The notes under the pieces are model-generated. The model did not search any database. It saw only the letters and a program-made list of their open reading frames with translations, and was not told the DNA's origin. Both the position numbers and the translations under genes were made by a program. From a virus, in IMG/VR virus record IMGVR_UViG_3300037071_003688: a DNA stretch of 64,000 bases, one strand, 5' to 3'. The first letter of the stretch is position 1; every line of letters begins with the position of its first letter. Positions 3,768 to 62,800 of this stretch are shown here, piece after piece.

Positions 3768-3869
3768 ACTCCCAAGCGGACACCAGGTCCCGAGTCAGAC
3801 CCCTTCGGGGGCGAGACAGAGGAACGAGGACTGTGCGGGAGATCGGACCCGGCTTCGGCCGGGTCCTTT
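3768..3869 (+). ncRNA. Putative structured sRNA with its own promoter and terminator
   Basis: TTGCGT-N17-TAGCTT (3735-3763); nested stems CTCCC/GGGAG, GTCC/GGAC, CCCC-TTCG-GGGG; ends in a terminator. Confidence 0.55.
3845..3869 (+). terminator. Intrinsic terminator
   Basis: GGACCCGGC-TTCG-GCCGGGTCC-TTT. Confidence 0.75.
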
Positions 3870-3913
3870 CGCGTTCCGGCTTGAATGTCGCCGCCTCGGA
3901 CTACGGTTACGCC

Positions 3914-5367
3914 ATGACTGTGAGCGTCACTGTCCGCATGTCCACACCGCCGACCCCGAGCCGTCTCTGCCAAGCACAGACGTTCATGACGGGCGTGAAC
4001 GCGTGGGGTGATCGCCCCGCCATCGAGGCGCACCACGCGCCGTGTCGGGCCGGGGCGAGCGCCTGGGTCACCGAGGTCGACTACTGCTGGGGTCACATGC
4101 CTGCCGAATGGCGGATCGTCGCCGAGCGACGCCACGAACTGTGGGCCGAGCACGCCCCCCAACTGTGGGCCGAGATCTGCATCGAGATCCCCGGGCCATG
4201 AACGAACTCGTCAACGACCGCCTGGAAACGGTCCGCCGCTACGAGGTGCGCACGACCTGCGACCGCTGCAAGGCGGTGATCCAGCCCCCGAGATCGGGCG
4301 ACTTCGACACGACCACCATCGTCAACGAGTCCGGCTCCTCGTACGAGGACTTCTACGACTCCCAGTTGGAGGGCGTCGACTGCTGCGTCGACTGCTGGGA
4401 GTTGGTCCGCGCCGCGCTCGTGGAACTCGGCTTCACCATCCGCGCTTGGGAGCACGATCGCGAGACCCGCGCCACGTACAGCGTCGACGGTCGACCGCAC
4501 ACGTTCGAGGCTGTCGAGTGATCGACATCGAGGCGCTCGCCGCCGAGCCGCCGTTGCTCGATGAGATCGAGTTCACGAAGCTCTGCGAGGAAGCCCTCAC
4601 CGCATTCCGCTCCGACCGCTCCTGGCCGACCGACGTCCCGTACCCGGGCTGCCACACCATAATCCTCGGCCCCGCCGGTGTGTACGGCTTCCCAGTGTGG
4701 TCTGAGGGCCGCTACAGCGACCTGTCGTTACGCGAGGCCCGGATGATGGCCCGCATCCTCCACGAGCGCCTGGGACTCATCTACGACCCACAGAGCCGTG
4801 ATCCCGGGTGGGCAGAGGTCGCCACCGGCCGCTTCCTGGTCAACTCGGTCAACGCCGAGGTCGTCCCCTGCCCGTACCCACGATGACTGAGTCGAAGTGG
4901 ATCACCATCGAGCACCGAGGAACCTCGGCGTCCGGCAAGACCGACGTGTGGACCGTGCGCCCCAACGAGGCCGACGAAGTGATCGGCGTGATCTCGTGGT
5001 TCGGCCGCTGGCGCCGCTACGCGTTCTTCCCGGCCAACAACACCGTGTTCGAGCAGGACTGCCTGCGCGACATCGCCAACTTCTGCGAGCACGCAACCAA
5101 GGCCAGAATGTCACCCCCTCCTGTCAAGATGACCACATGATCGAGTTCGACGCCGACCCCGTGATGCTGTCCACCATCGTCATCGGCGAGATCGGGCAAC
5201 GCCTCGACCACGCCGACACCCCGTCGCTCTGGGTGCTCGTGCCATCAGGATCCGCCGTGGCGCACGTGCTCCTGATCCGCGAGTTGCTCCCCAAGCTGGG
5301 CTTCAAGGTGAACGTCGGCTACCACGACGACGGAGTGCCGAAGGTCTACGTGGTAGCCGATGGGTGA
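3914..5367 (+). CDS. Five coupled hypothetical proteins (3914-4201, 4198-4521, 4518-4886, 4883-5140, 5137-5367)
   Basis: Chain of 4-nt start/stop overlaps; GC-rich third positions. Confidence 0.65.
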
Positions 5368-18907: not shown

Positions 18908-20521
18908 ATGAGCAAGTTCGCTCAAACCGCCACGACCGCCCGCCCGCAGGGGCCGCTGCACACCCTCCCCGGTGTTCAGACGCGCACCCACGAGGGCGGT
19001 CTCGGCTTCGTCAAGGACGCCCGCACCGAACTGTTCTCGCTCGGCGTCGCGAACTTCGTCGCCGAAGACACGTACTACGAGAAGGCCGGTGTCCGCGACA
19101 AGCGGTTCACGGATCTCGTGCGCGAGGTCACGGCACTCGACCCGGACTGGGTCGCGCACTTCATTCCGTGGCTCCGCCAGGAAGCGAACATGCGCACCGC
19201 TTCGGTGGTCGCCGCCATCGAGTACGCCCGCGCCGCTCCCGGCACGAACGGCCGCGCAGTGATCGCGCAGACGCTCACGCGCGCCGACGAACCAGCCGAG
19301 GCGCTCGCCTACTGGATGTCGCTCTACGGCCGCAAGATCCCCAAGGCCGTCAAGCGCGGCATCGCCGACGCCGTCGTCAAGCTGTACACGCAGAACGCCG
19401 CCATGAAGTACGACTCGCGCGACGCCAAGATGCGGATGGGTGACGTGATCGACCTCGTCCACCCCAACCCGCACGACGCGCTCCGCTACTGGGAGCAGGA
19501 CGACATGGGCATGTCGGACAGCGACGTGGAACTCCTCAAGGACCGCGTCGTGGAGCGCAAGCGCGCCCTGTTCCAGTACCTCCTCGACAAGCGCCACGGC
19601 CGCGACAACCCGCGCGGCCTCGACCGGCTCGGCAAGATCTCGGCCCGCAAGGACGCGATCAAGGCCGCGGCCGAGGGCGGCGAGTTGGACGTGACGACGG
19701 GCATGACGTGGGAGACCGCGTTGTCGCTCGGCGGCTCGAACGCGGAGACGTGGCAGAAGGTCATCCCGCAGATGGGCTACATGGCTCTGCTGCGCAACCT
19801 GCGCAACTTCGAGGACGCCAAGCTGCCCGCCAACGTCCTCATGCAGGTCGCGTCGACGCTGGCCGACCCCGAGCAGGTCGCCAAGTCGCGCCAGTTCCCG
19901 TTCCGGTTCCTGTCGGCGTGGTCGGCGTCCGGCTCGATGATGTGGGGTCAGGCGCTCGAACTCGCGCTCGAAGCGTCGTGCGCCAACATCCCCGAGTTCC
20001 CGGGCAAGACGCTGATCATGGTCGACGTGTCGGGTTCGATGGACGGCAAGATGTCGGCCAAGTCGACGGTGTCGCGCAAGGTCGCCGGTGCCGTATTCGG
20101 CGCGGCCGTGATGAAGCGGTCGGCTCCCGGCTCGAAGCTCGGCGTGTACGCCACGCTGTGCGCCGTGCAGGACAAGCCACGCTCGGTCCTGCGCACCGCC
20201 GAGGAGATCGGCAAGCTGTCGGGCGTCGGCGGTCACGGCACGAACACGTGGCCATCGACGTGGATGCTGTGGCAGGAGTACGGCCCATTCGACCGGATCC
20301 TCATCTTCACCGACGAGCAGCACCACCCATCGCACATCACGGCCGGTTCGTTCCCCAAGGACGTCCCGATCTACGTGTGGTGCCTGGGCGGCTACCGTCC
20401 GGCGTCGCTCGACCTCGGCACGGGCCGCTACCTGCTCGCCGGTCTCAACGACCAGTGCTTCAAGCTGATCAAGATCCTCGAAGCCGGGTCCGAGGGACGC
20501 TGGCCGTGGGAGGTCGACTGA
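18908..20521 (+). CDS. rsr: Ro60/Rsr TROVE-domain RNA-binding protein
   Basis: THEGG, EDTYYE, WLRQEANMRT, RADEPAE, TWET, MALLRNLRN, QFPFRF; vWA MIDAS DVSGSM and FTDEQ. Confidence 0.95.
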   Translation: MSKFAQTATTARPQGPLHTLPGVQTRTHEGGLGFVKDARTELFSLGVANFVAEDTYYEKAGVRDKRFTDLVREVTALDPDWVAHFIPWLRQEANMRTASVVAAIEYARAAPGTNGRAVIAQTLTRADEPAEALAYWMSLYGRKIPKAVKRGIADAVVKLYTQNAAMKYDSRDAKMRMGDVIDLVHPNPHDALRYWEQDDMGMSDSDVELLKDRVVERKRALFQYLLDKRHGRDNPRGLDRLGKISARKDAIKAAAEGGELDVTTGMTWETALSLGGSNAETWQKVIPQMGYMALLRNLRNFEDAKLPANVLMQVASTLADPEQVAKSRQFPFRFLSAWSASGSMMWGQALELALEASCANIPEFPGKTLIMVDVSGSMDGKMSAKSTVSRKVAGAVFGAAVMKRSAPGSKLGVYATLCAVQDKPRSVLRTAEEIGKLSGVGGHGTNTWPSTWMLWQEYGPFDRILIFTDEQHHPSHITAGSFPKDVPIYVWCLGGYRPASLDLGTGRYLLAGLNDQCFKLIKILEAGSEGRWPWEVD

Positions 20522-36256: not shown

Positions 36257-39200
36257 GTGGCCACCGCCACGTTCGCCAATCCGTGGCATGACGAAATAGG
36301 TCGCTTCGCGCCCAAGGGAACCGGCACGAAGTTCGGCGCGACGCAGGACGAGATGCGGTCTCTGTTCGAGCCGGTGCGTCCGCTCGTGGACGTCCTCGAA
36401 GGCGCCGGTGCGAAGACCTACCTCGTGGGCGGCTCGGTCCGTGACCGGCTGCTCGGCATCGACGCCAAGGACATTGACATCGAAGTCCACGGGCTGACCC
36501 CCGACGAGACCATCGCACTGTTGAAGGAACGGGGCGCCCGCGTCGATGAGGTCGGCAAGGCGTTCGGCGTGTTGAAGGTGACATTCGACGGCGAGACCCA
36601 CGACTTCTCGTTCCCCCGCACCGAGGTCAAGACCGGCGAAGGCCACACCGGCTTCGATGTCACCGTCGACCCGAACCTCGGCATCGAGCAGGCGCTCGCC
36701 CGCCGCGACTTCACCATGAACGCGCTCGCCGTCGACTCCGACGGCAACATGGTCGACCCGTTCGGCGGGGTCGCTGACCTCAAGGCCGGTGTGCTGCGCC
36801 ACGTCGGCCCGGCGTTCTCAGAGGATCCGCTCCGCATCCTGCGCGGCGTCCAGTTCGCCGCCCGCCTCGGCCTCAAGTTCGACCCGGAGACCGCCAAGCT
36901 CGCCCACGACCTGCTGCCCGAGTTGGAGAACATCTCGACGGAACGCGTGTGGGGCGAGTTCGAGAAGCTCGGCGGTAAGGGCGTCTCGATGGAGGCCGGT
37001 GTCCAGGCACTCAAGGACGTCGGTCTCGACACCCGCTACGGCAACGTCCACTTCGACGGCGAACCGAACCTGACCGGTCTCACCGGCGACCATCGCGCCG
37101 CCGTCGCGCTCACCGCGATCGGCGTCGACCCCCGCCAGATCGGAGCGCCGAACACCGTCTCCCGCACCATGCGCGACGTCAGCCAGGCGCTCGCGTTCAC
37201 CGGCGACCAGGCCGCATCCCGGACCGCGGCCCGCGAGTTGAAGTACGGCACGTTCGAGGACGCCGCCCGGATCGCAGGCCCAAACGACAACGTCGACCCA
37301 CGTGTCCTCACCGGCCCACTCCCCGGACTCGTGACCGGCAACGACGTGATGGCCCGCGGTGTGCGCGGCTCAGCGATCGGCGAGGTCCTGCGCGCCGTGC
37401 AACAGGCCCAGGACAACGAGACCATCGTGACCCGCGAGGACGCGCTCGCCTGGCTCGACAAGCACGCCACCGCCGCTATCCGCCGCTCCGCCGCGTTCGT
37501 GAATCCGTGGCACGACGAGGTCGGACGGTTCGCCCCGAAGGGAACGGGACGCCGGTTCGAGCCGCGCGGCGGCGCCGACGCCCAAGCACAGGCGCTCGCA
37601 GAAGCGATGGCGACACGAGCCGAGTTGAACGGCGGGTTCACATTCGACCCGCGCGGCAACCTGTTCATCAAACCCGATCCGTCGCTGCCCCGCGAGGAAC
37701 ATCGCGGCGCTGTCGCCGTGCCCGGCCATTCGGCGATCATCACGATGGAAGCCTTCCAGGACCCGACACGTGGCAAACAGTTCATCCGCGACTACCTCGA
37801 CCAGCACGCCGAAACCATCGCCTCGCAACCGGACATCTTCATCGGCGGCTGGCACGACCGAGCGCACGGCGAGGTCGTGCTCGACCTGTCGCAGGTGCGC
37901 CCCCTCGATGAGGCGATCAAACTCGGGATCGAACGCGGCGAACAAGCGATCTTCGATCTCGACAGCGAGGAAGACGTCCCAACTCACGGGACAGGCGGAC
38001 GCGAGAACGTCAAGATAGTTGACGCATCGGGTCAGGGTTTGGTACGATTCAGTCATGGCAGATACCGCGGACCACCGCCAGCAGGCGCCGGACGTAACGG
38101 TACGTCCGGGCGACCTGGAAGGCTGGGCGGACAAGTCCGAGGAGGAGAAGCAGGCGATCGTGGACGCCATGTACGAGGGTCTGAGTTCGCCAACCCCTGG
38201 CACGACGAGATAGGCCAGTTCGCGCCGAAAGGAACCGGCTCGACCGGGAAGGGCCGCTCCTCGAAGGCGGAGGAGGCCGCAGCGGCGAAGCTCGCCCGGG
38301 CGAAGGCCCGCAAGGTCCCGAAGCCGACCGAGGACGACGTGATCCAAGGCCAGGTCGACGCCCTCCTCGCGCGTGAGGGTTTGGTGCGCGCCGGTGGCGA
38401 TCGGCGTGGCAACAACACGGCCCGGAAGAAGCGCGCCAAGGCGCTCGCCGCCGAGTTCGGCGACGGCACGACCTGCGCCTGCCCGGACTGCGGGCAGCGC
38501 ATCGCGGCCGACGCGGCAACCGCCGAGAAGCTCGGCATCGACGCGCTCACGCAGGACAAGATCCTGGTGGGCACGTTGGGTGGCTCCTACAAGATGGAGA
38601 ACCTGATCCCGACCTGCCCGCCATGCAACCAGTCGCGCGGCGACCGGGAGGGCATCGGTGTCGTCGGCGACGTGCGCCAGACGTGGGGATCAGCGGAACG
38701 GTTCACGCGGACGGTGGTGCGTCAGCACGGCGACGCCATCGCTCAACGCTTCCAGGAGCGCCGGTCGGCGATCATGAAGCGCAAGGGGATCACGTGGGAG
38801 GAGCACATCGCCGAGAACCCGGACGCGCTCCCGCAGGACTTCGATCGGCTACGCCGCCCGGTCGGCGGGAACTTCGCCGTCGACGGCTGGACCCCCGGGG
38901 AGATCGTCACCGACTGGCTCGATCGTGTCGCCGTCAACGGCCACGCCGTCGACCATGAACTTCGTGTAGACGATCCCGTTCGAGTCGACTTCCCAGGTGA
39001 GCAACTCACCCTCGACCCCTGGGTCACCGACGATCGGGTTGTCGAGGTCATCGGGGGTGTCCCACCCGAACCGCTTGGCTCGCACGATCGTGCCGTCCTC
39101 AACCACAGACCGCAGCGTAGCGAGTTCGGCAACCCGTGGCATGACGAGATCGGTCAGTTCGCGCCGAAGGGCACGGGCACCAACTTCGCCAACATCGCCC

Positions 39201-41506
39201 GTCGCGCGGACGAAGCGGAAGCGGCCGGATCGCAGATCTCAGAACTCGACCTTGAGCAGGCCGCACTGCTCGATGACCGGCTGCGCGAGTTCGGGAAGGC
39301 GATGGGCAGCGACTTCCAGAACGACGACGGCGTCAGGCTGACCCATCACGCACTCGACCAGCGGCATGGGCGTGGGACGATGAACGGACTCGCCGCCACC
39401 AACCCGGATGGCGTGGTGCTGGGCGCGATCGCCTACAACAAGAACCCCGGCGACTACCACATCGAGTTCCTCGGCTCGACCGGTCTCGTCAAGGGCGTCG
39501 GTTCGCAGTTGGTGATCCCCGTGATGGAACGGGCCGCAGCCGATGGGGCAAAGGTGACACTCAAGGTCGCCGGGACAAAGAGCGCCGCCTCGTTCTGGGA
39601 GTCGCTCGGCTTCGAGCGGGACTGGGAGAGCGCCACCGGCGCCACCATGCAGCCCGCCGACGTGCAGGCATGGGTGGCGAATCTCAACCGCGAACGCGAG
39701 GGTGTCTTGGTCGGCGCAGGCGCAGCACCAGAAGGATGGGATCCCGACGACGACCGCTGGGCTGCCCACGCGATCGAACTCGGGCTGATGTCCATTGTCG
39801 CCTCCGCGGCGCAGTTCATGAACCCGTGGCACGACGAGGTGGGTCGGTTCGCGCCGAAGGGGACCGGGCGCAAGTTCGGTAAGCACGTCTCGTGGCATGT
39901 CGGCTCAAACGGCTACGAGGTGATGCACAACGGGAAATGGGTCCGGACGCCGGAAGCCATCAAGCACTACGGCGCGCTCGAAGTAGCGCAGCACATGTCG
40001 CCGCTCGAAGCCCGTCAACTCCGTGAGGAGTTGGAAGGCCAGACGATGATCGACCTTCTCAATGACACGGACGTTCAGTACAAGGCAACGGCATCGCTGG
40101 CGGTCCTGACTCACGACCCGAACTTGCACGGCAAGGAAGGTTTCGAGCATCTTCAACGTCAAGTCACCTTCGCCAAAGAGGCCGACCTCGGGCTGGTGAT
40201 GCAGTTGTACGCCGCAGAGCAGTTCGCCTCATGGGAACACTCCGGGGTCGACATCGCCCTGTTGAAGGAAGCCACGCAGGCGCACATGCGCGGTGAGATT
40301 GACGCCGCCTCACTGTCACGGATGATCACCGAGCAGTACGGGATCACGGTCGAATCGGGCGCCGTTGGCTGGTTCAACCGGGCCTGGCAGATCTCCGCCG
40401 TCTCCCACGAATCAACTGCGATGCAGATCCAGATCGCCGAGCAACGCGGTCTAAGCGCAGCCGATGCGGCGATGCGCGACTACGTCGGCGACTCGACGCT
40501 GGACAAAGCCAACGATCTGACGTGGTCGATGGGAGCGACGATCAACGCCGTGACGTCGGCTCACATCCGCAACACTGAGGAGAAGCTGACCCAGGCCCCG
40601 GAACTGGCGTTGCCGACGATCCACCGAGGCTTGAAGGGTGAACAGTTCACCAGCATCCAGGCCGGTGACACGGTCCAGTCGAACCCCTTGTCGTCGTGGT
40701 CGTTCGACCCGAACCAGGCCGAGCACTTCGCCACCAACTTCATCGACACACAAGGGATCGTGATCACCACCGAGTTCAACCCGGCCAACGTGCTCACCAT
40801 CAGCGACATCAGCGGCATGGGATCACTGGACGAGCGAGAAGTGATCATGATCGGCGAACCGGTCAAGGTCACCCGCGCTCGTCTTCCAACGAAGCCCAGC
40901 GGTTGGGCAGTGATCCCGGAGAACGTGTACCTGATTGACACCCCGGAGAACGTCGACTGGATCACCCGCGAACCCGACGAAGCTCTGACGGCATCGGCGG
41001 CCAAGTTCGCGAATCCGTGGCATGACGAGATCGGACGTTTCGCGCCGAAGGGTCAGGGCAGCACGTCCGGCGGGCTGGACAACGAGGAGGCTGACGCCGA
41101 GTTCGAGGAGAAGTACGGCAACGAACGCCGATCCGGCGACGGCGACTGCTTCGAGGTCGGTTTGCACTTCATCCACTCCATCCCTCGCGGCGAGGAGGAC
41201 CGCTACAAGCTGTGTCACGGCGTGCCCGAGGGCCAAGGCCCGATCGAAGGCGTCCGCTTCGATCACTGCTGGATCGAACGAACCGACCCGCTCCCCGAGA
41301 CCATGACCCCCGAGCAGCGGGCGATGTTCGAGCAGTACGAGATGAACATCACCGTGATCGACAAGTCGAACGGCAACGATGTCGAGATGCCCCGACTGCT
41401 GTACTACCAGTTGGGCAGCATCAATCCTCGCGACGTCCGCCGCTACACACCAGACGAAGCCCGCCGCGAGGCCGTCCGAACCGGGGTTTACGGGCCGTGG
41501 ACATAG
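36257..41506 (+). CDS. Modular effector polyprotein A: tRNA nucleotidyltransferase, unknown domain, HNH, GNAT, ADP-ribosyltransferase, Cys-His domain
   Basis: GGSVRD/DIDI/RRDFTMNAL/EDPLR; CPDC..NLIPTCPPCN; KGVGSQL..FWESLGF; HRG/SSWS/EREV; GDCF..HCWIE. Six NPWHD motifs. Confidence 0.85.
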   Translation: MATATFANPWHDEIGRFAPKGTGTKFGATQDEMRSLFEPVRPLVDVLEGAGAKTYLVGGSVRDRLLGIDAKDIDIEVHGLTPDETIALLKERGARVDEVGKAFGVLKVTFDGETHDFSFPRTEVKTGEGHTGFDVTVDPNLGIEQALARRDFTMNALAVDSDGNMVDPFGGVADLKAGVLRHVGPAFSEDPLRILRGVQFAARLGLKFDPETAKLAHDLLPELENISTERVWGEFEKLGGKGVSMEAGVQALKDVGLDTRYGNVHFDGEPNLTGLTGDHRAAVALTAIGVDPRQIGAPNTVSRTMRDVSQALAFTGDQAASRTAARELKYGTFEDAARIAGPNDNVDPRVLTGPLPGLVTGNDVMARGVRGSAIGEVLRAVQQAQDNETIVTREDALAWLDKHATAAIRRSAAFVNPWHDEVGRFAPKGTGRRFEPRGGADAQAQALAEAMATRAELNGGFTFDPRGNLFIKPDPSLPREEHRGAVAVPGHSAIITMEAFQDPTRGKQFIRDYLDQHAETIASQPDIFIGGWHDRAHGEVVLDLSQVRPLDEAIKLGIERGEQAIFDLDSEEDVPTHGTGGRENVKIVDASGQGLVRFSHGRYRGPPPAGAGRNGTSGRPGRLGGQVRGGEAGDRGRHVRGSEFANPWHDEIGQFAPKGTGSTGKGRSSKAEEAAAAKLARAKARKVPKPTEDDVIQGQVDALLAREGLVRAGGDRRGNNTARKKRAKALAAEFGDGTTCACPDCGQRIAADAATAEKLGIDALTQDKILVGTLGGSYKMENLIPTCPPCNQSRGDREGIGVVGDVRQTWGSAERFTRTVVRQHGDAIAQRFQERRSAIMKRKGITWEEHIAENPDALPQDFDRLRRPVGGNFAVDGWTPGEIVTDWLDRVAVNGHAVDHELRVDDPVRVDFPGEQLTLDPWVTDDRVVEVIGGVPPEPLGSHDRAVLNHRPQRSEFGNPWHDEIGQFAPKGTGTNFANIARRADEAEAAGSQISELDLEQAALLDDRLREFGKAMGSDFQNDDGVRLTHHALDQRHGRGTMNGLAATNPDGVVLGAIAYNKNPGDYHIEFLGSTGLVKGVGSQLVIPVMERAAADGAKVTLKVAGTKSAASFWESLGFERDWESATGATMQPADVQAWVANLNREREGVLVGAGAAPEGWDPDDDRWAAHAIELGLMSIVASAAQFMNPWHDEVGRFAPKGTGRKFGKHVSWHVGSNGYEVMHNGKWVRTPEAIKHYGALEVAQHMSPLEARQLREELEGQTMIDLLNDTDVQYKATASLAVLTHDPNLHGKEGFEHLQRQVTFAKEADLGLVMQLYAAEQFASWEHSGVDIALLKEATQAHMRGEIDAASLSRMITEQYGITVESGAVGWFNRAWQISAVSHESTAMQIQIAEQRGLSAADAAMRDYVGDSTLDKANDLTWSMGATINAVTSAHIRNTEEKLTQAPELALPTIHRGLKGEQFTSIQAGDTVQSNPLSSWSFDPNQAEHFATNFIDTQGIVITTEFNPANVLTISDISGMGSLDEREVIMIGEPVKVTRARLPTKPSGWAVIPENVYLIDTPENVDWITREPDEALTASAAKFANPWHDEIGRFAPKGQGSTSGGLDNEEADAEFEEKYGNERRSGDGDCFEVGLHFIHSIPRGEEDRYKLCHGVPEGQGPIEGVRFDHCWIERTDPLPETMTPEQRAMFEQYEMNITVIDKSNGNDVEMPRLLYYQLGSINPRDVRRYTPDEARREAVRTGVYGPWT
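38055..38213 (+). CDS. Overprinted 52-aa acidic protein inside polyprotein A
   Basis: Class I promoter (TTGACG 38019, TACGAT 38043) with ATG 6 nt downstream, in another frame. Confidence 0.55.
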   Translation: MADTADHRQQAPDVTVRPGDLEGWADKSEEEKQAIVDAMYEGLSSPTPGTTR

Positions 41507-56639: not shown

Positions 56640-57595
56640 GCGATGCGTCGAAGATGAGCGGCGGTCTGCTCGGTGATCGCCGCCGACGATTCCTTGTAGA
56701 CGGCGTCGACCTGCTGGGACCAGAACCGGTGATCGGCGAGCACCTCACTCAGTCGGACCTCGGGGAAATGCGCGCAGGCGCGATCGAAGTGGGCGAACAT
56801 CGTGCAGTCGGTCACCATGATCGGACGACGGGCGGCGACGAGGTAGTCGAGCGCCGACGACAGCCCGGCGTTGTGCTGACCGGGAACGTAGAACAGACAG
56901 TTGACGGTGTTCTCGGCGAGCCGGGCGACGACGTCGTCCGCTTCGAGATGGTCGCTCGTGCGGTGCAGACGCAGCCCGGGATGACCATCGAAGATCTCCT
57001 CGATCTGGCGCACGATCCCCGGACCGTACAGTTCGCGGCCCCCAGCGCCGTTGAAGTACGCCTCGGGCATGTGGAGATCGAAGATGGCGACCTGCAACGT
57101 CGCCGCGATCTCGGTGGCGACGGCCGGGAAGTTCTTGTGCGGGAACGCGAACCCGAACGATCCGATCCGCGGCGGTGACGGCAACGGTCCGAGCGTGACG
57201 GTGTCGGGTAGCGGCCGGTCGGTGACGAGCACCCACGGGTTCGTGGCGATCAACGTCGGGTCGAGCGCGAGCATGAAGTCGAACAGGCGGTGATGGTCGG
57301 CGGCGACCTGGTCGATTGTGTCGTGCTGGTAGTTGTGGATCACCGCGATTCGTGTCGCCCGATGTCGCTTGATGTCCTCGGTCACCCACGGCATGATCCC
57401 CGGCATGAAGTTGATGATCACCGCGTCGAACTTGTCGGACTCCATCACCCGGTGATACGCCTCGATGTCGTTGACCTCGATGTAGTCGAGCGCGATGTCC
57501 TCCCCGAGCGCGACCAGTCGGGCGTGTCGCCGCCCAAGATCGTGTACGCCGCACACCTCGCTGTGAGCGTGGTTGACGTACAAGACGTTGATCAT
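56636..57595 (-). CDS. GT-B glycosyltransferase-like protein
   Basis: CGV, IGSFGFAFPHKNF, GLSSALD..RPI. Confidence 0.65.
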   Translation of the reverse strand: MINVLYVNHAHSEVCGVHDLGRRHARLVALGEDIALDYIEVNDIEAYHRVMESDKFDAVIINFMPGIMPWVTEDIKRHRATRIAVIHNYQHDTIDQVAADHHRLFDFMLALDPTLIATNPWVLVTDRPLPDTVTLGPLPSPPRIGSFGFAFPHKNFPAVATEIAATLQVAIFDLHMPEAYFNGAGGRELYGPGIVRQIEEIFDGHPGLRLHRTSDHLEADDVVARLAENTVNCLFYVPGQHNAGLSSALDYLVAARRPIMVTDCTMFAHFDRACAHFPEVRLSEVLADHRFWSQQVDAVYKESSAAITEQTAAHLRRIA

Positions 57596-58812
57596 GCGCC
57601 GATCACCCGGAACTCCGGACAGGGCACGATGAACTGACCGCCACCTTCGAGGTAGGCGCGCTCGCGCTTCACGAACTCGGAGATGAAGTGCCACGGCAGC
57701 ACGAGCAGGTAGTCGGGGTTGGCGGCGCGCATCTCGTCCTCCGAGACGATCGGGATGTTCGTGCCGACCGTGCGCAGCCCGAACTTGTACTGCGACCGTT
57801 CGGCGATGCCGTCGATCATCGTGTGGTCGAGACCGAAGTATTGGAGCAACGTGTTGCCCTTGGTCGACGCCCCGTACGCCCACACCGACTTGCCGCGGGC
57901 GCGCTCCTGCGCAATGAAGCTGACGACGGTCGCCTTGAGCGACTCGATCTTGTCGCGGAACGCGAACCACACCTCGGGCGAGTTGAGATCGTGTACGAAC
58001 TCCATCGCTTCGAGCGCCGCGATCCGCATGTGGCACACGTCGCGGTGCGGCTGCGTCGCGAACATCGTCGGGTCGCCGCCGTGCTTCATCGCGTACACCC
58101 GGAACGAGCCACCATTGACGTCGTTCAACTGGACATCCACGATCCGCAGCCCAGCGGACCGGAACAAGGCGTCGATCGTCGCCAACGTGTAGTAGTGGAT
58201 GTGCTCGTGGCAGATGTTGTCGAACGCGACCTGGCGCAGCATCAACGGTGTGTACGACATCTGGACGACGAACAGACCATCGTCACGCATGAGATCCACG
58301 ACGTCGCGCAGGAACGGCATCGGATCTTCGAGGTCGTAGAACATGGCGATGCACGTCACGACCTTGGCGCGCAGGTTCCCGAGTTCGGAGTTCTTCCACC
58401 CGCTGTAGCTGAACGGCTCCTGCAAGATCAGATCGGCGTGGCGGCGCGACTCGACCGCGAACGTGTCATCGGCCGGGTCGATCCCGGCGCGCACCATCGA
58501 CTCGGGCACGTGGGCGAGCAGCGTCCCGTCGTTGCAGGCGATGTCGACCCACAGATCACCGCGCTCGATCGGCATCGCGTCGGTGATCGACGTGACGATC
58601 CCAGCCAACTCGTTGGTCATCGTCGCGTTCGTACCGGACCGGTACCAGTAGCGGCCGTACATGAACTCGGCGTCCGCCGACTCGGAGAGATGGACGCGCC
58701 GCGTCGACTCATCGAACACGAGCTTCAACTCGACCGGCTCGGCCCGCGGTTCCTCGTCCGGGCGAAGGAAGTCCGACACGTACAACCGACCGAGCGAGAA
58801 CAGATCCGTCAT
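57592..58812 (-). CDS. NDP-hexose C-methyltransferase family
   Basis: Y.YRSG, DIACNDG, FDNICHEH, NGGS, YGASTKG, PDYLLVLPWHF. Confidence 0.88.
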   Translation of the reverse strand: MTDLFSLGRLYVSDFLRPDEEPRAEPVELKLVFDESTRRVHLSESADAEFMYGRYWYRSGTNATMTNELAGIVTSITDAMPIERGDLWVDIACNDGTLLAHVPESMVRAGIDPADDTFAVESRRHADLILQEPFSYSGWKNSELGNLRAKVVTCIAMFYDLEDPMPFLRDVVDLMRDDGLFVVQMSYTPLMLRQVAFDNICHEHIHYYTLATIDALFRSAGLRIVDVQLNDVNGGSFRVYAMKHGGDPTMFATQPHRDVCHMRIAALEAMEFVHDLNSPEVWFAFRDKIESLKATVVSFIAQERARGKSVWAYGASTKGNTLLQYFGLDHTMIDGIAERSQYKFGLRTVGTNIPIVSEDEMRAANPDYLLVLPWHFISEFVKRERAYLEGGGQFIVPCPEFRVIGA

Positions 58813-58939
58813 GACATCAACGTAGTTCTGGCCTGCTCCACCATCGAGGAATACCTGTGAAATGTGTTGACAAACCCTGGACGTTCTGCGCATAATACTG
58901 GTGGAAGGAGAAGGGAGTTGGGGTTCTTCTCCTCCGAGA

Positions 58940-59101
58940 GTTCCTGTGCTGTCAGCGTCGTCTCAACCCGGCGCCGAGCAGACTCACGGTCCGTGCACGG
59001 AGCGTGAGAGAAGGTCCGTGGCCCACGGCACCTGGTGGCCACCAGGGTGGGTACGACCGGTTAGCGGTTCGAGTCCGCTACGGCGCTGAGAGCACAGGAA
59101 C
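58940..59101 (+). ncRNA. Large tRNA-like ncRNA
   Basis: T arm AGCGG-TTCGAGT-CCGCT; ~21-bp closing helix; two long arms capped by palindromes; no 7-nt anticodon loop. Confidence 0.65.
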
Positions 59102-59109
59102 CGCCCAAT

Positions 59110-59182
59110 GATGCTGTAGCTCAGTGGAAAGAGCACCGGCTTGCGAAGCCGGTTGTCGCAGGTTCGAGTCCTGCCAGCGTCA
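59110..59182 (+). tRNA. tRNA-Arg(GCG)
   Basis: Full cloverleaf, loop TTGCGAA; no encoded CCA. Confidence 0.9.
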
Positions 59183-59185
59183 CTA

Positions 59186-59322
59186 CTCCACCGCAAAGGT
59201 TGGCTTAGAAGCAGCCATCCTCTAAGGAGTGACACCCGAGTCCGGACGGTCCGGTGGGAGCCAGGGAACTGGTGAGGAACCTATAGAGCCTCGTCTTAGG
59301 CGTAACAGCACATGCGGTGGGG
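59186..59322 (+). ncRNA. rRNA-mimic ncRNA (23S H43/H44 plus L1-stalk-like motif)
   Basis: Closed by CTCCACCGCA/TGCGGTGGGG; contains GTTGGCTTAGAAGCAGCCATC and GCGTAACAGC. Confidence 0.8.
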
Positions 59323-59325
59323 CGA

Positions 59326-59398
59326 CCGAATGTGGCGCAGTTGGTAGCGCACCTGGTTTGGGACCAGGGGGTCGGGAGTTCGAGCCTCTCCATTCGGA
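59326..59398 (+). tRNA. tRNA-Pro(TGG)
   Basis: Cloverleaf, loop TTTGGGA; no CCA. Confidence 0.92.
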
Positions 59399-59475
59399 CG
59401 AGCAGTTCGGCGAGACTTGAATGACCCGCTGAAAACCCGGGGTGCGGCCCGGGCGTCGAACTGCCAGAATGAACT

Positions 59476-59690: not shown

Positions 59691-59762
59691 GCCGCCGTAA
59701 CTCAACGGCAGAGTACCGGCCCGTCAAGCCGGAAGTCGCGGGGTCAGCACCCGCCGGTGGCG
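59691..59762 (+). tRNA. Atypical tRNA-Asp(GTC)
   Basis: Stems intact, G73; C33 and T-loop GTCAGCA. Confidence 0.75.
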
Positions 59763-59872: not shown

Positions 59873-62800
59873 ATGCTGCGTCCGCGTTACGACCTGGACC
59901 CCGACGCGATGACGGACAACGAGCGGCGCGCCAAGCGGCGCTTCGACGCCTACTTCGTCTTCGAGACGATGCCGTGGCCACCGGCGGACCTCCCCGCAGA
60001 TCCGGACTAGGGACGTCAACAGTCTTGACAAACCCTAGTCCGTCTGCGCATAATGAAGACGTGAGAGAGGGTCCCACCACCTGCGGCAAGATCAAGAATG
60101 TCCGGGTCAGCCGGGGCGTCCTCGGCAAGGGCAAAGAGTCGTTCACGACCCGCCCTGTCATCTGCGGCGCCAACGTCGCGCCCGGATCGGACCTGTGCCC
60201 GATGCACCTGGCGAACGCCAAGCGTTGGGAGGCCAAGCTGGCCGCGAAGAAAGCGTGGCTGGCCGCGAACCCCACCGCCACGAAAGCGAGGAACAAGTGA
60301 TCGCCACCGCCAACCACCCACCCATCAGCCTCGACGCCTCGAACATCACGATCCGTCTGGGCGATCGGCGCCTGCCGCCGTTCAGCGAGTTCCCGGCCTG
60401 GGCGGCGCTGACCGAGTACCTGGCAATGATCCTCGGACCCATCGAACCTGGCAAGTGACTTGACAACCCTAGTCACGATGACCTAAGATTCTCTTGTGAG
60501 GGAAGGACCCTCACGGAAAGGAAACCACCACTCATGGCCTACGCCGACAGGAACTTCAAGACGAAGAAAGCCTTGAAAGAGGCCGTAGCCGCGGGCGAGA
60601 AGGTCGGGATCTTCAACCCCGGCCTGGGAGTCGCCCCCGAGAACGGGACGGCCAGCCTCGAAGGTCCCCACTTCCCGGCCGCTCACACCTGGTACGCCAG
60701 GGTGGCCGTCGTCAACGGGGTGATCACGAAGGTCATCAGCTAGCCGGAACGTTTCACGTGAAACGTCCGAGAGAGGAGAAACCACCACGACAGAACCCAT
60801 GAGCCAGCTTCCCGGCCGGGTACCACAACCCGACAACTACGTCGCCGGGAGGCTGCCCGGGGAGTCGTGAGCCGCCCACCCACTGGCTCCGACTCCCCGT
60901 TCAGCCAGACGAAAGGAAACCACCACCGATGACCCGATGGACACGAGTGACCGACCCCGGTGGTCGGGTGATCGGCTACAAGAGCGAGGTAGGAGCCGTG
61001 GACAAGAACCCGCACGGCGACGGCCTTTGGTTCCTGTCGCCCGCCGGTGACCACGGACGAACCGCCCACCTCACGCTCACCGCCGCCAAGGCCCGCGCCG
61101 AGGCGCTCGCCCGAATGAGAAAGGAAACCACCCCATGACCGACTTCGAGAAGTTCCTCAAGGAACACGTGATGGTCATCCCGGTCGGCTTCACCCGGAAG
61201 TGTCGCGAGTGCGGCCGGGTGTTCGACCTGTGCGACCCGACCGACGCCGACGAGTTCACCAACGGCCACGACTGCGAGGCCAACTGATGAGCCGCTACAA
61301 GGTCCACGGCGACTGGACAGTCGACGGCGAACTCGGCCCACGCGACATGTTCTTCGTGATGTTCGCTGATGCGCTCGACACGAAGACCGGCGACGTGTTC
61401 CGAGCCGGTGCCTACCGAGTTGTCGACGCCTACGGCAAGCCCGCCGTCAAGGGCAAGGGCGGCACCGTCCCGTTCTACGGCGAGTCGGCCTGGTCAAACG
61501 CCGCACGGCTGGCCGAGGATCTCACCTTCGCCGCCCGCCGAGCGTCGTGAATACTCTTGACAACCTTAGTCCGGATGGGAGATAATCAAGACGTGAGAAA
61601 GGAAACCACCACCACCATGACCCACACTTACGAAGTCAGCCACCCGAACCTGTCGCATCCGCTGGTGATGGACTCCGAGGTCGAACGGACCCCGCGAGCA
61701 CTCGCCGCCTGGGCGTCGATGTACATCCTGCGGGAGTTCGATGAGATGCTCCCCCTTGACGAGTTCACGGTCACGGAGGTGACGTGATGTCAGATCCCAC
61801 CGAAGCCGCACGACGGGAGTTGATCCCGACCATGCCCGCCGAGGCGCTCGCCGCGGCCGAGCGCGGTGAGCCGGTCTGGACGACCGACGAGATGACCGCC
61901 GAGTTCGAGGCGATCGGATTCCTCGCCCCGTTCGTGATGGTCCGGCGCCGGTCCGATGGCGTCAAGGGCACGCTGATGTTCAGCGGTCGCCCCCGCTTCT
62001 ACTTCGGATTCGCCGAGGCATGAGCATGAACGCCACCGTCACGGTCACCTACGACGGAGAGTCGGTCACCTTCGAGTTGGAGGGGGCCGAACTGTCCGAG
62101 ATCCATCTGAGCGACACGCTCACCAACCGCTACCTCAACAACGCCAGCCGCAGCGTCATCGCCGACGAGGTCGAGAAGGCGCTGCTTCACCTCGCCCACG
62201 GAAAGGCACTCTCGTGACCGGCACCTTCAACACGCCGCTCGGCAAGATCCGCGTCGCCTCGATGCGACGCTTCATCCTGCTGCGCCGCTACACCGACAAG
62301 CCGGTCATCGTCAAGCGGTCCGACAGCATGGAGACTCTGCTGCGGCTGCGCCGCACCGGCGACTTCATCCTCGACACGGCGTGCCTGTGCGACCGTCGCC
62401 CCGGCGACTTCATCGTCAACCCCAGGTGCGCCAAGCACGGCGCCCACGAGTACCACGGAGCACCAACATGAAACTGACCAACGGGGCGACCGTTCTGCGC
62501 GCTGCCATCAACTACGAGGGCGAGACGGCCACAGCGGTCGTGCTCGCGACGTGGAACGCTCACGAGTTCGTCACCTGGGACGCCTACCTGCGTCCAGGCG
62601 AGACCGAGTGGGACGCCGAGGTCGGCCACTACTTCAACGCCCACGAGCCGTTCAGCGAGGCCACCATCGCCGCCGCCAAGGACGCCGCGATCGGCGACTT
62701 CCGCGCAAGGATCGGAGCACGATGAACACGAAGCACACAGGCGACCACCGCCACCGCACTGAGGTCCACTTTGAGCGGATGCCCGGCCTGGCGTTCGCCA

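Follow-up and report, generated by a model that had tools for sequence, protein, structure and literature searches.

The GTPase-associated center (GAC) of bacterial 23S rRNA, which consists of the top of helix 42 (H42) together with helices 43 and 44 (H43 and H44), spans E. coli positions 1051-1108 and corresponds to the 58-nt fragment to which uL11 and thiostrepton bind. In this study, we describe an element of a phage genome that is almost certainly a free-standing RNA counterpart of this domain. It occupies positions 59186-59322 (plus strand) of the 64-kb stretch IMGVR_UViG_3300037071_003688, the whole of which is referred to as the window, and its positions are numbered after E. coli 23S rRNA (rrlH of MG1655). 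The element has the same helices as the 23S GAC, the GCGUAAxAGC hairpin, identity over 1059-1079, and the same tertiary partners (U1060 with A1088, 1082 with 1086, and G1071 and C1072 with pairs of the H44 stem). It differs from the rRNA domain in that it stands alone, at about 140 nt, between tRNAs; that its H44 is opened at U1090/G1091 by a 65-nt insert and a 4-nt linker; that U1101 is replaced by A and H42 by an arbitrary helix with A1055-U1104 and A1056; and that it scores higher with a model of the phage RNAs.

Several other described RNAs share a principle or a setting with the element. Ribosomal protein leaders, such as the L10 leader (RF00557) and the L1 site of the L11 operon mRNA, likewise place a copy of a ribosomal protein site off the ribosome, their principle being competition with rRNA. 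They are cellular cis-regulatory parts of mRNAs, loose mimics that lie upstream of the gene they regulate, whereas the phage element is a near-exact, stand-alone copy found in tRNA operons with no ribosomal protein gene nearby; the Rfam leader models did not match it. The RNAs of phage tRNA clusters (extra tRNAs, tmRNA, Y-RNA-like RNAs, and T4 species 1 and 2) share with the element co-transcription and presumed release by RNase P and 3' processing. It is likewise translation cargo of large phages, with tmRNA near some of its relatives and a Y-RNA-like RNA in its own operon, but it has no tRNA-like domain and mimics an rRNA domain, and no BLAST match to it was found in T4-type reference phages. 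Finally, 6S RNA, a mimic of the open promoter, is also a stable RNA that stands in for a nucleic-acid ligand, in its case that of a central host machine, and that binds the protein partner of this ligand. It differs from the element in target, origin and structure, and the analogy is one of principle only.

The element between tRNA-Arg and tRNA-Pro

A 142-nt spacer (59184-59325) separates tRNA-Arg(GCG) from tRNA-Pro(UGG) in the window, and the 137-nt element lies inside it, with 3 nt between its closing helix and each of the two tRNAs. This helix has 10 bp with one G-U pair (59186-59195 with 59313-59322). Within it, all 21 bases of GTTGGCTTAGAAGCAGCCATC (59199-59219) agree with E. coli 23S positions 1059-1079, for which the chance expectation is about 8e-5 (a 21-nt match between the 64-kb window and one 23S sequence), and GCGTAACAGC at 59300-59309 corresponds to 1091-1100 with U1097 changed to C. 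Positions 1082 and 1086 are occupied by C59222 and G59226, and 1058:1080 is G-C, the same as in actinobacterial 23S rRNA; the state at 1055:1104 is A-U, and position 1056 is A. A59310, at position 1101 where rRNA has U, pairs with U59230 (U1090). The element occurs once in the window, with no second copy. Rfam gave no match to large subunit (LSU) rRNA anywhere in the window, even at an E value of 10, and no rRNA sequence flanks the element. A first-pass annotation, made from the letters of the window, had already placed it between two tRNAs with a 10-bp closing helix and the rRNA words at these positions, and had read it as a copy of the H43/H44 thiostrepton domain; the first point was confirmed and the second supported, the copy being a free-standing non-coding RNA. 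The parts of the element and the adjoining tRNAs are as follows.

59110..59183, plus strand: tRNA-Arg(GCG), adjoining the element upstream, with no encoded CCA; 72 bits; discriminator at 59182, with CUA between it and the closing helix
59186..59195, plus strand: 5' strand of the closing helix (top of H42), in which A59195 is position 1055; 7 of 7 tested pairs covary in the family
59197..59221, plus strand: H43 equivalent (1057-1081) including the A1067 loop; identity to E. coli 1059-1079 at 59199-59219
59222..59226, plus strand: junction CUAAG (1082-1086) with the tertiary pair C1082:G1086; supported by family covariation
59227..59230, plus strand: GAGU (1087-1090), 5' strand of the H44 base, with A59228 as A1088, which partners U1060 (59200); supported by covariation
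59231..59295, plus strand: variable insert of about 65 nt, with a base helix GAC/GUC (59231-59233 with 59293-59295); predicted fold, the base-helix pairs covarying in the family
59235-59258, 59260-59273 (GGAA loop) and 59274-59292, plus strand: three hairpins of the insert, predicted by folding
59296..59299, plus strand: linker UUAG (family consensus UUUG), from the alignment
59300..59309, plus strand: H44 hairpin GCGUAACAGC (1091-1100), with A1095 at 59304; G1091-A1095 and A1098-C1100 are invariant, 1096 and 1097 are free
59310..59322, plus strand: A1101, C1102 and A1103, followed by the 3' strand of the closing helix, in which U59313 is position 1104; supported by covariation
59326..59399, plus strand: tRNA-Pro(UGG), adjoining the element downstream after the spacer CGA (59323-59325); 65 bits

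A family of phage RNAs that keeps the GAC pairings

A search for homologs and covariation, which the first-pass annotation had suggested while treating the element as a single case, showed that it belongs to a family numbering hundreds of phage RNAs, in which the rRNA pairings covary. The family was found in more than 200 IMG/VR contigs. An exact-pattern scan of IMG/VR located the H43 17-mer in at least 117 contigs and a second pattern in at least 119, and a 3' marker that has no rRNA counterpart was present in 105 contigs, about 95 of the 100 searched giving full-length model matches. BLAST against GenBank phages detected the core in unannotated DNA of the Pseudomonas phages pf16, UNO-G1W1, Milchi and Astolliot, as well as Xanthomonas phage XacN1 and Aeromonas phage 4_4572, and, with weaker scores, in jumbo phages related to the Cronobacter phage GAP32. 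The copy in pf16 sits between tRNA-Asn and tRNA-Pro and that in UNO-G1W1 between tRNA-Trp and tRNA-Arg. When bacterial genomes were scanned with the 3' pattern, 107 of 120 matches were chance hits, as the pattern statistics predict, and the remaining 13 were real members, mostly on contigs of metagenome-assembled genomes.

In GenBank, opposite-strand calls of a 'hypothetical protein' lie over the RNA in UNO-G1W1 (CDS0126; L396, 1270-1377) and Milchi (CDS0161; L397, 1226-1357), and both calls are probably spurious. In Paenibacillus phage Pd_22F (MZ092003.1, about 83.4-84.7 kb; L004), a stretch reads as genuine, uninterrupted 23S rRNA, which could be host DNA or an assembly artifact.

The hosts of the carrier phages include Proteobacteria, Firmicutes-like and Actinobacteria-like groups, and others, and the architecture is invariant across them. 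From the 5' end, it consists of the closing helix, GGA-N-GU, the H43 hairpin, AUC-N', and UUUAAAGAGU or UCUAAGGAGU; next come a helix leading into the variable insert, whose length ranges from 0 to about 350 nt, and then UUUG, GCGUAAxAGC, ACAC, and the other strand of the closing helix. The insertion point is fixed between U1090 and G1091. One contig has a minimal copy without any insert (L016, 3711-3779), which makes the GAC shell the functional core. Two close copies are present on each of two other contigs (L050 at 5138 and 5456; L124 at 3843-4084 and 4096-4334). The linker at 59296-59299 of the window, UUAG, is one base off the nearly invariant UUUG; this consensus is complementary to 1083-1086, and 92.5% of alignment cells are paired in that register, although the covariation of 1082:1086 argues for the rRNA-type fold over this pairing.

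Pairing was examined in an alignment of 35 family sequences, with 500 shuffles as the control. The GAC-type structure had 93% of cells paired (72% in shuffles) and a covariation score of 0.53 (0.13 in shuffles), which none of the 500 shuffles reached, and the signal was lost when partner columns were shifted by one to three. A second sample, comprising 77 unique full-length members that were anchored on the 3' side only and aligned by the model, is unbiased for positions 1051-1090. In this sample, the tertiary pair 1082:1086 is UA in 28 members, CG in 27 and AU in 14, with eight non-pairs, so the C-G of the window is indeed the covariant form that had been proposed at first. Position 1058:1080 uses all four Watson-Crick types (AU 26, UA 25, GC 18, CG 3), and 1057:1081 is AU in 66 members and CG in eight. 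The pairs G1087:C1102, U1090:A1101 and U1060/A1088 are each kept in 76 of the 77 members. In the family, 1055:1104 is GC in 27 cases and AU in six, and the three pairs of the insert base helix also covary. Conservation reaches 99-100% at G1059, U1060, G1063, C1079, A1085, G1087, A1088 and U1090; the least conserved loop bases are A1067 (81%), G1068 (83%) and A1070 (81%), and 1096 and 1097 are free. As to whether 1058:1080 tracks the host, the pair is G-C in pf16 and XacN1 and A-U in Aeromonas phage 4_4572, all of which differ from the gammaproteobacterial 23S state, which we take to be U-A (E. coli alone was checked); this comparison was not used as evidence.

A covariance model (R2) was built from 34 other members, with the window excluded. 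It recognized the element of the window over its full length (model positions 1-168) with 91.2 bits (E 1.8e-29), and scored 91.7 bits on XacN1, 83.8 on the Aeromonas phage, 106 on UNO-G1W1 and 85.3 on GAP32 as independent members. Genuine 23S GACs received 55.5 (E. coli), 53.4 (Actinomadura) and 61.2 bits (Paenibacillus), and 16 unrelated viral loci gave no match. The window element has all family pairs, namely those of the closing helix, H43, H44, U1060/A1088, 1082:1086, the insert base helix and A1101:U1090. It is thus a non-coding RNA of the phage GAC-mimic family with the GAC fold, an assignment we regard as nearly certain.

Genomic neighborhoods were counted over 98 family loci, as were the insert motifs discussed below. 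A tRNA on the same strand lies within 3 kb in 70 of them and within 60 nt in 48, and an opposite-strand tRNA was found in none. No protein family recurs beside the element, the largest cluster being present at five of the 98 loci. In the window, no ribosomal protein gene was found among the larger open reading frames (ORFs) scanned, the neighbors of the element being tRNAs and small phage ORFs. The RNA family is real, keeps the secondary and tertiary pairings of the GAC, and travels with tRNA genes.

These data also bear on the idea that such an RNA has no function of its own and is a piece of rRNA picked up by the phage, a chimera created in assembly, or no more than a structured spacer that aids the processing of tRNAs. 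Its short length and place in a tRNA spacer would suit this idea, as would the highly variable inserts. However, identity to rRNA is confined to 21 plus 10 nt with no flanking rRNA, compensatory changes affect the helices and the tertiary pair in hundreds of unrelated phages, A1101, the linker and the insert helix set the family apart from rRNA, and for 28 of the 98 members no tRNA lies within 3 kb. An RNA without function is consequently very improbable.

As far as can be told, the class is unpublished. Rfam 15 has no such family, either at the gathering threshold or at E values up to 10, for the window and eight family loci, and gave sub-threshold local LSU matches on two family members only. 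Full-text literature searches, including one with the exact H43 RNA string, returned only structural papers on rRNA and uL11 and a paper on the toxin Tre23, none of them describing the phage RNA, in agreement with the initial statement that no such phage RNA was known to the annotator. If confirmed, the finding would mean that phages copy a functional center of ribosomal RNA as a separate stable RNA, beyond tRNAs, tmRNA and a few ribosomal proteins, and it would represent a new class of host-takeover or counter-defense molecule. Because the likely partners (uL11, the stalk, translation GTPases and RelA) are well studied, the hypotheses are directly testable. Moreover, hundreds of natural GAC variants mark the nucleotides needed by the fold and by its ligand, and the spurious 'hypothetical protein' calls over the RNA in several GenBank phages can be corrected.

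Candidate ligands and the variable insert

The nucleotides of rRNA contacted by the C-terminal domain of uL11 are 1058-1060, 1062-1065, 1075-1083 and 1088 (PMC1802607). In the family, these positions are 86-100% conserved or covarying, they are present in the window, and the insertion point at 1090/1091 is outside the contact list. The bases that meet thiostrepton, the N-domain of uL11 and translation factors are the relaxed ones (A1067, G1068, A1070 and 1096/1097). Capture of uL11 is favored because the contact set is kept, the insertion point falls outside it, and the factor and drug contacts are relaxed. Moreover, since the RNA occurs with many host phyla and no cis protein partner accompanies it, it probably binds a host component that is universal. 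The best explanation overall is a phage GAC mimic that is released by tRNA processing and captures host uL11, which we hold to be somewhat probable as a whole; that the element captures host uL11 is, judged from sequence features, a credible but tentative proposal.

According to this explanation, the element would be transcribed together with six tRNAs and the Y-RNA-like RNA from a consensus promoter and would be excised by tRNA-processing enzymes, since a tRNA is only 3 nt away on either side. Processing of the 3' end of tRNA-Arg would create its 5' end, and the RNase P cut at the 5' end of tRNA-Pro its 3' end. Release of this kind had been assumed in the first-pass annotation, and the setting is right for it: the element lies in a tRNA operon, where processing would free it. 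The product would be an RNA of about 140 nt with its ends locked in the 10-bp helix. As the covariation shows, its two end portions rebuild the compact tertiary fold of rRNA, and the RNA would fold like the 58-nt fragment that binds uL11; the 65-nt middle departs from H44 between U1090 and G1091, outside the uL11 footprint. Off the ribosome, such an RNA may offer a second site to a ligand that recognizes the fold, and the likeliest such ligand is the C-terminal domain of uL11 from the host. Thus, uL11, possibly with stalk partners, would be titrated from ribosomes or free pools, and uL11-dependent processes, for example the activation of RelA, would be altered.

Several points weigh against this reading. 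A sponge faces a problem of stoichiometry, since tens of thousands of ribosomes carry uL11. Conservation still amounts to 81-95% at A1067 and A1095, well over the neutral level, and factor or drug contacts may therefore matter in most members; in addition, a subset of members with a copy of the sarcin-ricin loop (SRL) points to translation GTPases rather than to uL11 alone. The conservation comparison is partly shaped by sampling, because each sample was anchored on a fixed pattern. Close relatives of the window phage, in which covariation within its insert could be seen, were not found (with the portal in IMG/VR, or with the 759-aa head protein in metagenomes). Furthermore, the thermodynamic minimum free energy (MFE) structure prefers a private 6-bp helix (59222-59227 with 59294-59299) that would break the GAC junction, at -55.9 kcal/mol compared with -44.6 kcal/mol for the GAC fold, both calculated without tertiary or protein terms.

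This private helix corresponds to the alternative pairing of CUAAG with CUUAG that was noticed in the first reading of the window. The alternative is favored by the thermodynamic calculation but finds no support in the family: as a family feature, the CUAAGG/UCUUAG helix was rejected, since 65.5% of cells pair in it, compared with 66.2% in shuffles.

The SRL copies suggest a ligand other than uL11 alone. They were detected in about five of roughly 200 inserts, all in long-insert members (L127, L385, L348, L040 and L072); L127 (6457-6857) carries in its insert CUAGUACGAGAGG, which is identical to E. coli 2652-2664, and the copies of the other four are similar. The RNA could then be a mimic of the whole factor-binding site and, alone or with host uL11, uL10 and bL12, interact away from the ribosome with translation GTPases, RelA or effectors that depend on the stalk. 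In keeping with this, most members, including that of the window, retain A1067 and A1095, and EF-G is reported to bind isolated GAC and SRL oligonucleotides (work attributed to Munishkin and Wool in 1997). However, the SRL is rare, and the insert of the window contains neither it nor any other rRNA module; A1067, G1068 and A1070 are the least conserved of the loop bases; and the part of H42 that uL10 needs is replaced by a plain, freely covarying helix. Overall, a mimic of the entire factor site appears distinctly unlikely. A slightly better, if still low, chance may be given to a portable factor-docking RNA that, with uL11 (in some lineages with stalk proteins, or with GTPases through the SRL), forms an off-ribosome particle which would rewire RelA and the stringent response or trap defense effectors directed at the stalk or the GAC. 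Such a particle, if real, would define a new class of viral RNAs, those that imitate a functional center of the ribosome. Separately, a tmRNA gene was observed near L127, L072 and L040.

Both loops of the element are close to rRNA in sequence, which would also fit a target that is read by its bases. The RNA could accordingly serve as a decoy substrate or binder for toxins that attack the GAC (ADP-ribosyltransferases, nucleases or methyltransferases acting on H43/H44), thereby protecting translation during infection. Phage tRNA clusters are known to replace or shield host RNAs struck by defense nucleases, and the lack of a conserved cis protein partner is compatible with a decoy as well. Toxins with this target exist, as the Rhs toxin Tre23 ADP-ribosylates 23S rRNA at helix 44 of the GAC (PMC8661411). 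Nevertheless, such toxins are sporadic while the RNA is spread over many host groups with one architecture, a stoichiometric decoy poorly stops catalytic enzymes, positions 1096 and 1097 of the H44 loop vary freely beside the known target region, and no link to defense or anti-defense genes was seen nearby. Hence, we consider a decoy role unlikely, at about the level of the factor-docking particle, and prefer the capture of uL11. The functions proposed in the first-pass annotation, a decoy for rRNA-targeting enzymes or a sponge for L11 or Rel, are both plausible.

Besides the GAC copy, the first-pass annotation had recognized an L1-stalk motif (23S helices 76-78, H76-78) in the insert, with the same topology as the L1-binding site. 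The element would then be a chimera of the GAC and the L1 stalk that also binds uL1 and disturbs the autoregulation of the L11 operon. Indeed, GGUGGGAG (59253-59260) equals E. coli 2120-2127 and is followed by a hairpin and a purine-rich stretch. However, the shared 8-mer GGTGGGAG is at the level of chance, since about six 8-mer matches are expected between the 142-mer and 23S rRNA and about a dozen were seen, and 124 of 1000 shuffled inserts align to the L1 stalk equally well. In E. coli H77, GGUGG (2120-2124) pairs with CCACC (2174-2178), so the proposed GGU:ACC registration is wrong, and the window cannot form the real helix. The GGU:ACC pairing has a predicted probability of 1e-4, GGUGGG being predicted to form the 3' strand of the first insert hairpin, and the 3' junction in the window is UGAGGA and not GACCUUGAAAUA. 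Within the family, GG.GGGAG occurs in one of 98 inserts, which is that of the window itself, and the motif occurs in none of about 200 others; no family insert matches 23S 2093-2196, and a pattern with a free helix had no match in the metagenome collection. The claimed topology thus failed on statistics, predicted fold, registration with the real H76-78 and conservation, and the chimera with the L1 stalk is highly improbable.

The L1-stalk motif at 59253-59281 inside the insert was rejected as a chance-level match with neither fold nor conservation, and the idea of L1 binding and ribosomal protein autoregulation loses its basis. The broader idea of an rRNA chimera is partly true at the level of the family, because the SRL, the only rRNA module to do so, recurs in inserts of some long-insert members; the part that concerned the L1 stalk did not hold. 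Nor did the insert show any significant likeness to the whole 23S rRNA, 76 of 300 shuffles scoring equally. The insert of about 65 nt is a private, variable, lineage-specific expansion at the fixed point of the family. Two insert modules recur elsewhere, CACCCCGUAAcUGGUAAGGCUGA (for example L001 1640-1665, L013 and L022) and GUGCGAAAUGU...UAUGAUGUGC (L023, L053 and L011); both are without resemblance to 23S rRNA and are absent from the window.

The stable-RNA operon and its surroundings

The window phage has a GC content of 65%, and its portal protein is about 30% identical to the portals of Microbacterium, Gordonia and Mycobacterium phages. The operon that contains the element runs from a promoter-like site through a Y-RNA-like region, tRNA-Arg, the GAC mimic and tRNA-Pro to four more tRNAs, and its tRNAs have no encoded CCA. 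Four promoter-like sites were counted in 2 kb, where shuffles predict 0.2. Features around the element are listed below.

58867..58896, plus strand: promoter-like site before the stable-RNA operon (TTGACA, 18 nt, CATAAT); 11 of 12 consensus matches
58940-59103, plus strand: operon leader with a long terminal stem and a T-arm-like hairpin; z = -4.1, with weak YrlA matches
59691-59762, plus strand: sixth tRNA, with an unusual T-loop; 52 bits with Rfam, missed by ARAGORN, anticodon read as GUC (Asp)
18908-20521, plus strand: gene for a TROVE-domain (Ro60-like) protein
36257-41506, plus strand: ORF of 1749 aa directly after the portal gene, with an HNH domain and, at the N terminus, a CCA-adding/poly(A)-polymerase head domain
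57592-58893, minus strand: gene for a C-methyltransferase (Methyltransf_14/23)

The strong promoter-like site (TTGACA, 18 nt, then CATAAT or TAAGAT) is present three times in 1.6 kb on the plus strand, at the position listed and at 60025-60054 and 60460-60489, and these repeats are probably an early-promoter series of the phage. The operon leader and the TROVE-domain protein form a candidate Y-RNA/Ro pair. For the C-methyltransferase, counterparts with 55-63% identity occur in 389 IMG/VR contigs, among them bins of giant viruses. Such conservation is unusually high for a gene of an otherwise orphan phage; the 389 contigs are unrelated and of no use for synteny.

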